Both the position numbers and the translations under genes were made by a program. DNA of 63,239 bases from an uncultured Candidatus Saccharibacteria bacterium (GTDB lineage Bacteria > Patescibacteriota > UBA1384 > 2-12-FULL-50-11): positions 1 to 63,239 of the forward strand of contig CAYHNZ010000002.1 in assembly GCA_964358205.1 (NCBI GenBank), in the 5' to 3' direction. The notes below the pieces were generated by a model. It was not told the DNA's origin, ran no database searches, and saw only the letters and a list, made by a program, of their open reading frames with translations. Below are positions 35,596 through 35,714 of this stretch, piece by piece; positions within the stretch are counted from its first letter, which is position 1, and each line of letters opens with the position of its first letter.

Positions 35596-35714
35596 ATCAA
35601 TTTACAATTTTCAATTTCTAATTTTCATTAAATTTTCAATGTTTTAATATCTCAATACTTGAAAATTGTCTCATTGAGAATTGATTGCAAATTGAAAATT
35701 GAGACTTGAAAATT
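35596..35714. repeat. Heptanucleotide array filling the whole nrdJ-pduO spacer (17 units)
   Basis: ATCAATT TACAATT TTCAATT TCTAATT ... GCAAATT GAAAATT GAGACTT GAAAATT, verified position by position. Confidence 0.9.

Follow-up and report, generated by a model that had tools for sequence, protein, structure and literature searches.

Short degenerate heptanucleotide arrays and their inverted pairing at spacer edges in a groundwater Patescibacteria genome

Introduction

A 63,239-nucleotide (nt) stretch of contig CAYHNZ010000002.1, hereafter the window, represents a bacterial population from Hainich groundwater. A preliminary description, made from the letters of this DNA, claimed that the spacer between the genes nrdJ and pduO and six further regions are built from degenerate arrays of 7-nt units, which it thought might be a mutational footprint or a regulatory or structural code, with an assembly or polishing artefact as a possible refutation. 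The locus raises the questions of whether this periodicity is real, how it arose and whether it has a function. The reading preferred here, at a probability of about 0.7, is that the arrays are slippage-derived, tolerance-filtered short degenerate heptanucleotide simple sequence repeats (SSRs), of the kind known as long SSRs or as short tandemly repeated repetitive (STRR) sequences. They reside in a Patescibacteria (candidate phyla radiation, CPR) genome related to Berkelbacteria metagenome-assembled genomes (MAGs), and their inverted pairs would be kept matched by hairpin selection or by template switching.

Period-7 arrays in the window

Tandem Repeats Finder (TRF) returned 52 rows for the window, 18 of them with period 7. 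Maximal lag-k segments numbered 14 at lag 7, eight at lag 14 and between zero and four at each of the remaining lags between 4 and 15, the enrichment being restricted to lag 7 and its multiple. Block-wise dinucleotide shuffles, which preserve local composition, gave a mean of 0.08 lag-7 segments and a maximum of one. Over 7.4 kb of roughly delimited intergenic DNA, lag-7 identity was 0.290 versus 0.2555 in shuffles (z=7.4); in coding DNA it was 0.245. All seven regions described before are periodic, with lag-7 identities of 0.46-0.86 versus 0.25-0.34 in shuffles (p<2e-4 each).

The extent of the arrays is smaller than had been claimed. In the nrdJ-pduO spacer (35596-35714), parsed before into 17 consecutive units, two arrays stand at the edges (35597-35624 and 35677-35714) and the middle is weakly periodic (0.45 versus 0.32, p=0.02); the region 27541-27672, given as 19 units, likewise has periodic edges around a middle of 60 nt without periodicity (p=0.33). 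A clear array was found in nine of the 52 spacers, mostly within 24-44 kb, so that spacers "built from" arrays and the word "pervasive" overstate a feature of about one spacer in five, at the edges alone. The arrays are 3-6 units long, and some 16 of about 22 lie in spacers or untranslated regions (UTRs), the other five or six being in loops, tails or junctions of open reading frames (ORFs). At least seven unrelated unit families occur in the 63 kb: AAGTCTN, GAATTWC, AATTTTC, CAAAAGN, TCTAAAT, CCCAAAT and CAGCAAT. The arrays at 7153, 8720, 17686, 24127, 24400, 24546, 26180, 29303, 40318, 44032 and 53988 had escaped the preliminary description, as had the presence of arrays within ORFs and the reverse-complement relation of paired arrays (Table 1).

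The window recurs at 99.85-100% identity in independent assemblies of three separate samples from one groundwater well (L161, L162 and L163), with no difference inside any array. The arrays are therefore not an assembly artefact, and the assembly or polishing error once allowed for is ruled out.

Host lineage and distribution of the arrays

The lineage of the window population consists of Patescibacteria MAGs. Pfam confirmed the gene names on either side of the 35596-35714 spacer, nrdJ and a gene for a PduO-type adenosyltransferase, and FtsA, SecD and YbeY are encoded nearby. The nearest genomes are L001 (a Patescibacteria-group MAG, the same as L081; PduO 84% identical) and L164 (MAG GCA_030699945.1; 82%). 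More distant relatives (66-67%) are the Candidatus Berkelbacteria MAGs L002 and L003, and L165, a contig from Hainich well H51; L164 and L165 were added by a YbeY homologue search. The order ybeY-ftsA-ftsZ-nrdJ-pduO is retained in all five. A metagenome scan and exact-protein look-ups for intermediate relatives suited to covariation analysis returned only L161-L163 and L001. A cyanobacterial origin of the DNA, considered for its resemblance to STRR sequences, was rejected, as the window carries ftsA and its nearest genomes are Patescibacteria and Berkelbacteria MAGs.

Lag-7 segments number 3-14 each in the window, L001 and L164, with two or fewer at any other lag; there are none in L002 and L003 and a single weak one in L165. 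Period-7 arrays had a median count of zero over 80 unrelated loci, and the few rich loci were Bacteroidota MAGs. Tandem AAGKCTN is almost exclusive to this clade within the 2.27 Mb of DNA compared, and the AAGTCTN arrays are clustered within 5 kb. Much larger heptamer regions than those of the window were seen in an unrelated metagenome contig and an unrelated Bacteroidota contig: in L156 (3856-4537) ACTGATY and AAATTAG arrays alternate over about 700 nt, and in L005 (10955-11136) a partly reverse-complementary array comes after (AGTATTA)18. Heptamer arrays thus recur sporadically in other phyla among the loci compared.

Differences between relatives and origin of the arrays

The alignment of orthologous spacers, proposed in the preliminary description, revealed gain and loss of units between the window, L001 and L164. 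The array following ftsZ is exactly one 7-nt unit shorter in L001, when aligned to its duplicate copy at 39594-39625. In the ybeY-ftsA spacer, each of the three genomes has four units in the left (stop-proximal) array, and one substitution recurs across these units, AAGTCTA standing three times in the window versus AGGTCTC or AAGTCTC in L001. As its right arm, that spacer has one CAGACTT in L001, where L164 has about five units and the window five; judged from the alignment, the arm is an array expanded from a single seed. Its derivation from an ancestral ybeY 3' end (L002 has GACTTCAGCC there) could not be established.

Coding DNA and gene junctions show comparable changes. Compared with L001 and L002, the rluA array adds a net 21 nt (seven amino acids) immediately in front of the conserved HPITGRTHQIRVH motif, and 21 is the smallest number that divides into both whole units and whole codons. 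The array at 26180-26216 encodes an N-terminal extension of SecF of 20-21 amino acids that is missing from L001 and L002, where secD and secF overlap. The window has an array of four units between rpsU and yqeY, genes that abut or overlap without an array in L001 and L164. Of the arrays in the disordered TraG/VirD4-like tail, the one at 24400 has a gap-free alignment with a more decayed period-7 stretch of L001, and the one at 24127 has no counterpart there. In the distant relatives the spacers at the ybeY-ftsA and nrdJ-pduO junctions measure 15-22 nt.

These differences support local duplication, whole-unit gain or loss and homogenisation, of which they are the footprints to be expected, and with the 7-nt indel, the 21-nt coding insertion, the seed expansion and the changes shared within arrays they bear out the earlier suggestion of a mutational footprint made by 7-nt duplication and drift. 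The survival of arrays looks filtered by the tolerance of reading frames and gene ends. Two further ideas were dropped. One was a rapid turnover, drawn from the 98% identity of FtsA and FtsZ proteins between L001 and L164, whose nucleotide identity is 88-90%, and 79-83% around ybeY. The other was that arrays provide stop codons in all three frames, 7 being coprime with 3, since roughly half of the unit families lack a stop.

In the reading of the arrays as slippage-derived SSRs, local duplication of a 7-nt seed would come first, with slippage of the replicating strand as its most likely cause, and the resulting array would then gain or lose whole units and homogenise internally. It would persist only where a change of length is harmless. 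Such places are the DNA just 3' of a stop codon or just 5' of a ribosome-binding site or start codon, the junctions between genes whose counterparts in relatives abut or overlap, and the loops and tails of proteins, provided that the frame remains open or the net length is divisible by 21 nt.

Several observations weigh against this reading. The consensus assemblies L161-L163, drawn from one population, show no unit-number polymorphism, so slippage either is not fast or is hidden by consensus assembly; nor do they reveal phase-variable contingency loci, all arrays being identical, though a consensus would hide minor variants. The 52 units of the AAGTCTN family from the three genomes hardly vary at positions 1-3 and are fully degenerate at position 7 (chi-square p ~1e-14, an effect somewhat inflated by registering the units on AAG). 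Such position-specific variation is not obviously produced by neutral slippage and drift, and hints at a constraint on the core. Counted from the alignment, the left ybeY array together with the neighbouring GTGTCGCTCCGCGA hairpin shares about 86% identity between the window and L001, versus 77-86% in the flanking coding DNA; being at least as conserved, it suggests constraint. Finally, none of the tests run accounts for a unit length of 7 nt.

Paired arms and predicted folding

Most genes associated with arrays are transcribed from the minus strand, on which the longer spacers have a common layout: a stop codon, an array, a centre, the reverse complement of the array, a ribosome-binding site and a start codon. 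In the spacer between the nucleoside triphosphate (NTP) transferase gene and secD, AAAACTC-type units are followed on this strand by GNTTTTG-type units ending before GGAGG. The spacer between ftsZ/NUDIX and nrdJ has arms that are identical over 30 nt as reverse complements (39186-39215 exactly complementary to 39594-39625, variant units included) and enclose about 370 nt, in which small dispersed repeats, a promoter and a probable small RNA ending in a strong terminator are located; the 39186-39215 arm is missing from L001 and L164. Short spacers have one array that fills the gap from stop to start (8720-8755, 17686-17713 and 44032-44061).

All four spacers with two arrays contain a reverse-complement pair at distance 0-2, the background rate for a distance of at most 1 being 3.3%. 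Since the stop-proximal and start-proximal arms are reverse complements, the spacer can fold into a stem, and the arms pair in every predicted minimum-energy RNA fold of the window, L001 and L164. The fold z-scores are -6.3, -3.5, -1.9 and -1.5 in the window, -4.9 in L001, and -2.0 and -2.6 in L164; the AT-rich pairs (-1.5 and -1.9) fold no better than many shuffles. At nrdJ-pduO both arms are of the AATTTT type in the window and L164, and both of the AAGTCT type in L001, a joint change that suggests coarse covariation within three genomes. A co-transcribed spacer, or single-stranded DNA, would thus fold into a long imperfect stem with the rest of the spacer looped out, and the complementarity of the arms may be maintained by selection on the hairpin or by template-switch copying between them.

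A stronger claim, that the paired arrays are selected cis-acting RNA elements, is unlikely. The duplex would serve as an RNase III site, as a 3'-end stabiliser or as a device keeping stop and start close after growth of the spacer. The consistent pairing of the arms, with z-scores down to -6.3, -4.9 and -3.5 and also seen in L164, speaks for it, as do the joint switch of arm type at nrdJ-pduO, the position of the arms from the stop codon to just before the ribosome-binding site or start codon, and the 15-22-nt spacers at the same junctions in more distant relatives. A precedent is the 5'-UTR of Haemophilus influenzae hmw, where (ATCTTTC)n is a hairpin arm cut by RNase III (PMC12721329). However, the arrays at 8720, 44032 and 26180 and the post-ftsZ arrays of L001 and L164 are unpaired, some arrays lie within ORFs, the AT-rich pairs have the poor z-scores given above, and the seventh position is mismatched between the arms of the ybeY-ftsA pairs. 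The sole perfect pair (39186/39594), missing from both relatives, looks like a recent copy and not a conserved stem, and three genomes are too few for a real covariation test. An elaborated form is given a slightly slimmer chance. According to it, the arms would be a maintained RNA device of this CPR clade that brackets inserts such as promoters, the small RNA gene and small dispersed repeats; the insert in a polycistronic RNA would be looped out by an imperfect duplex of 25-35 bp, which would be processed (for example by RNase III) or keep the upstream stop and the downstream start close, the arms being matched across genomes.

Alternative origins

The arrays could be multimeric sites for a lineage-specific protein that recognises a 6-nt core (AAGTCT) every 7 nt, either a nucleoid or regulatory DNA-binding protein or an RNA binder of the S1 or Csp type. 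The retention of AAG(T/G)CT with a free position 7 in the 52 units is in line with this, and arrays stand immediately upstream of starts that have no ribosome-binding site (pduO, the gene at 8747 and yqeY); the same idea has been proposed for the repeats of Beggiatoaceae (TAACTGA) and Nostoc. It is nevertheless improbable, because at least seven unrelated unit families in 63 kb cannot be explained by one binder, the bunching of AAGTCTN arrays within 5 kb is unlike the spread of a regulon, arrays occur in coding loops and tails, and no candidate protein emerged. A promoter or regulatory code, read before from TTGAAA/TAnnnT-like words, was not supported: a consensus scan of 26-45 kb gave 29 promoter-like matches versus 18.5 expected, and these were not associated with arrays.

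It is more improbable still that each block of array, centre and array is a mobile element resembling a miniature inverted-repeat transposable element (MITE), inserted into an originally short spacer with the heptamer arrays as terminal inverted repeats. Such an insertion would account for the 15-22-nt spacers of distant relatives at ybeY-ftsA and nrdJ-pduO, for the arms identical over 30 nt at 39186/39594 and for centres that often hold the small dispersed repeat GAGAAGCGAGCGnnAGCGACA and other dispersed modules. Yet the centres of the four blocks are mutually unrelated, no target-site duplications were seen, and the blocks do not form sets of near-identical dispersed copies like MITEs or repetitive extragenic palindromic (REP) elements, the arms evolving in place; the ybeY-ftsA right arm grows from a single seed unit, left arms occur without right arms in L001 and L164, and unpaired and coding arrays are left unaccounted for. 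Lastly, neither chance nor the composition of AT-rich spacers accounts for the periodicity, nor does an error of assembly or polishing. Despite a GC content of 0.20 and a marginal middle signal (p=0.02) at 35596-35714, these readings are refuted by the 14 segments against 0.08 in shuffles, the lack of excess at lags other than 7 and 14, the identity of three independent assemblies and the orthologous arrays in two other genomes.

Array catalogue and neighbouring features

The arrays that underlie the preferred reading of slippage-derived SSRs are listed in Table 1. The GTG start of ftsA at 42861 was confirmed by homology of the FtsA N-terminus.

Table 1. Heptanucleotide arrays of the window
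Feature	Position	Strand	Units and context
nrdJ-pduO start-proximal arm	35597..35624	-	GAAAATT AGAAATT GAAAATT GTAAATT (- strand); ends 6 nt before pduO ATG at 35592
nrdJ-pduO stop-proximal arm	35677..35714	-	AATTTTC AAGTCTC AATTTTC AATTTGC AATCAAT (- strand); directly after nrdJ stop; reverse complement of 35597..35624
secD start-proximal arm	27539..27566	-	CAAAAGN x4 (+ strand); ~30 nt upstream of secD ATG (27509), before GGAGG ribosome-binding site
NTP-transferase stop-proximal arm	27627..27673	-	AAAACTC-type units directly 3' of stop; approximate reverse complement of 27539-27566
nrdJ-upstream arm	39186..39215	-	AAGTCTG AAGTCTC AAGGCTA AAGTCTG (+ strand); upstream of nrdJ promoter region
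Post-NUDIX arm	39594..39625	-	AAGTCTG AAGTCTC AAGGCTA AAGTCTG (- strand); directly 3' of NUDIX ORF stop; within 175-nt duplicate of ftsZ 3' end
Post-ftsZ array	40318..40356	-	AAGTCTA AAGTCGC AAGGCTA AAGTCTG (- strand); 3' of ftsZ stop
ybeY-ftsA stop-proximal arm	43047..43074	-	AAGTCTA AAGTCTA AAGTCTC AAGTCTA (- strand); ~25 nt past ybeY stop; orthologous arrays in L001, L164
ybeY-ftsA start-proximal arm	42881..42921	-	ACTTCAG x3 CCTTGCA ACTTCAA (- strand); 20 nt before ftsA GTG (42861), just upstream of GAAAGGA ribosome-binding site
rpsU-yqeY single array	44032..44061	-	AAGGCTA AAGGCGG AAGGCTA AAGTCTA; fills junction
Array in spacer 2956-3303	2993..3023	+	TGAAAAT TGTAAAC TGAAAAT TGATAAT
Array at stop/start junction	8720..8755	+	TCTAAAT x4; includes upstream stop codon, reaches ATG of next gene; no visible ribosome-binding site
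Degenerate array	17686..17713	+	GATTTAA GAATTTA GATTTAC GATTCAA; fills 36-nt spacer
TraG/VirD4-like tail array 1	24127..24153	+	CCCAAAT x4; in open C-terminal tail of 1049-aa ORF; L001 orthologue without array here
TraG/VirD4-like tail array 2	24400..24434	+	GAATTAC-type x5; gap-free alignment to more degenerate period-7 stretch in L001
TraG/VirD4-like tail array 3	24546..24574	+	CCAGTCC/CTAGTTC x4; partly common to L001
secD/secF junction array	26180..26216	-	AAATTCG-type (- strand); frame open
rluA internal array	29303..29334	-	CAATTCG TTATTCG TAATTCG TCATTCG (- strand); loop before HPITGRTHQIRVH motif
Array in spacer 53951-54136	53988..54016	-	ATTGCTG x4 (+ strand)
Short post-stop array	7153..7168	+	AACTCAA x2.3; directly 3' of stop codon

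The small dispersed repeat GAGAAGCGAGCGnnAGCGACA (minus strand, about 22-34 nt) occurs in the window at 9448-9469, 27575-27596, 39281-39302 and 43281-43302, in L001 at about 6570-6600, and in the ftsZ-nrdJ and ybeY-ftsA spacers of L164; it resembles the "small dispersed repeats" of Nostoc. Three of the window copies are in spacers and one (77% match) is inside ybeY, where it coincides with an in-frame insertion of 12 amino acids (36 nt; ..SHRGASVNDKRS..) missing from five YbeY homologues. In L001 and L164 the motif is a 34-nt insertion in the nrdJ 5'-UTR. Larger dispersed intergenic repeats of about 110-300 nt, 84-100% identical and present in both orientations, with G-rich and C-rich complementary segments, lie at 1-171, 28820-29039, 34122-34276, 44323-44627 and 56299-56400 of the window and in the ftsZ-nrdJ spacer of L164; they match no Rfam family.

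Around nrdJ, the segments 39586-39760 and 40317-40491 are a 175-nt duplication with 91% identity, comprising the 3' end of ftsZ (its C-terminal peptide) and the downstream heptamer array. The duplicate sits at the 3' end of a NUDIX ORF (39635-40267), a gene that is missing between ftsZ and nrdJ in L001 and L164 and so looks like a recent insertion or rearrangement. The upstream region of nrdJ (38990-39135; L001 6440-6530; the ftsZ-nrdJ spacer of L164) contains ACAAACCCCGTAAT..TTGACAAGGTACT..GTGGTACTGTAGATGTCTGG and a direct GGTACTGT repeat. Its conservation far exceeds that of the remaining spacer, and it is the probable promoter or operator of nrdJ. The L165 orthologue of nrdJ (13565-18172) carries an intein with a LAGLIDADG domain, its product having 1535 amino acids versus 1078-1099 elsewhere.

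A probable small RNA gene on the minus strand (about 39330-39560) is predicted from a promoter-like TAGACA-17-TGcTAAATT, a structured region of about 200 nt and a strong intrinsic terminator CCUCCCCCUC...GAGAGGGGGAUUUUUU. It has no Rfam match (best E=0.52), and in L001 and L164 this position is taken by another promoter and another structured RNA. Over the whole window Rfam gave nothing at the gathering threshold and chance-level matches alone in the ftsZ-nrdJ and rpsU-upstream spacers; no tRNA or transfer-messenger RNA was found. A conserved box of about 45 nt recurs at 47275-47320, 47913-47957, 49026-49070 and 49676-49720, immediately upstream of the starts of similar-sized minus-strand ORFs (47.3-50.3 kb), which suggests a paralogous gene cluster with a common leader or promoter.

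Comparison with known heptanucleotide repeats

The window arrays consist of head-to-tail 7-nt copies beyond chance, are predominantly intergenic and differ by whole units between relatives, as do heptanucleotide SSRs. According to Mrazek et al. (2007), as summarised in two later papers (PMC4679880, PMC4692102), such repeats are the most abundant class of long SSRs in many prokaryotes, and 7 nt is proposed to be the stretch held by DNA polymerase, favouring slippage. These summaries, together with the arrays described in both papers themselves, contradict the earlier statement that no mechanism had been described. Full-text searches found no literature report of heptamer arrays in Patescibacteria.

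STRR heptanucleotides are reportedly found in heterocystous cyanobacteria, in several tandem families per genome and mostly between genes, work from 1990 by Mazel and colleagues being said to describe them; the units are CCCCAGT, TTGGTCA and CAACAGT. The window is alike in its several tandem, mostly intergenic families, but differs in units and phylum, having neither a cyanobacterial host nor the units of STRR1-3. REP sequences, bacterial interspersed mosaic elements (BIMEs) and MITEs are dispersed, near-identical palindromic units, intergenic, hairpin-capable and often 3' of stop codons. The arrays have in common with them the intergenic location, the hairpin potential and the frequent position downstream of stops; they differ in being tandem heptamers whose centres and arms vary between sites.

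TAACTGA repeats (MacGregor 2015, PMC4679880) occur in Beggiatoaceae, some cyanobacteria and Bacteroidetes as intergenic sets of 2-6 copies, many within a few nt of starts without a canonical ribosome-binding site, with strain indels in 7-nt steps and occasional copies in ORFs. The window arrays are similar in low copy number, intergenic location, nearness to starts without a ribosome-binding site, 7-nt steps and occasional ORF copies. However, TAACTGA sets are direct in 169 cases and indirect in one (PMC4679880), whereas the paired window arrays are inverted and many follow stop codons. No tandem TAACTGA was found in the window, the one match with two mismatches being at chance level.

In H. 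influenzae hmw (PMC12721329), the transcribed (ATCTTTC)n is one arm of a 5'-UTR hairpin that is an RNase III substrate and is needed for change in repeat number. The window shares the untranslated and presumably transcribed heptamer array as an arm of a long hairpin, here in predicted folds. The hmw array, however, has at least 11 perfect, phase-variable units and a G-rich non-repeat partner arm, whereas the window arrays have 3-6 degenerate units, are arrays in both arms and do not vary among three assemblies.

The (GGGAATC/GGGANTN)n arrays of Xanthomonas (Rehm et al. 2015, PMC4692102) mostly have four units, are about 90% intergenic at a mean of 28 nt from the upstream ORF, form 70-75 nearby convergent pairs per genome, for which the authors deemed stem-loops possible, and vary in length and sequence between related genomes at a common position. 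The heptameric SSR unit of Nostoc PCC 7120 is GGGGAYT (PMC4692102), and in a Nostoc preprint heptamer repeats beside start codons affect expression. The window shows the same degenerate 7-nt units with fixed and free positions, about four to an array, mainly intergenic, nearer the end of the upstream ORF and in convergent pairs, at positions common to related genomes but with differing length and sequence. It differs in having several unrelated unit families versus one dominant family, a small-genome Patescibacteria host and some arrays translated in frame. A tract of three to four G per unit, as a G-quadruplex would need, occurs in no window unit family save the 2.3 TRF copies of AGGGGAG at 17464, and units without such a tract cannot form one.

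The window thus reveals neither a new kind of element nor a spacer "code". Its arrays belong to a class that is known though little understood, that of degenerate intergenic heptamers which include convergent pairs; what is new is the lineage that hosts them and the families of their units. Through them the sporadic heptamer-repeat excess of cyanobacteria, Xanthomonas, Beggiatoaceae and some Bacteroidetes is extended to Patescibacteria, in a lineage with small genomes. They also offer clean comparative examples of array origin, namely birth from a single seed, 7-nt steps and in-frame insertions of 21 nt in conserved enzymes. Their consistent inverted pairing around spacers provides a tractable case for judging an RNA-hairpin role of such repeats.

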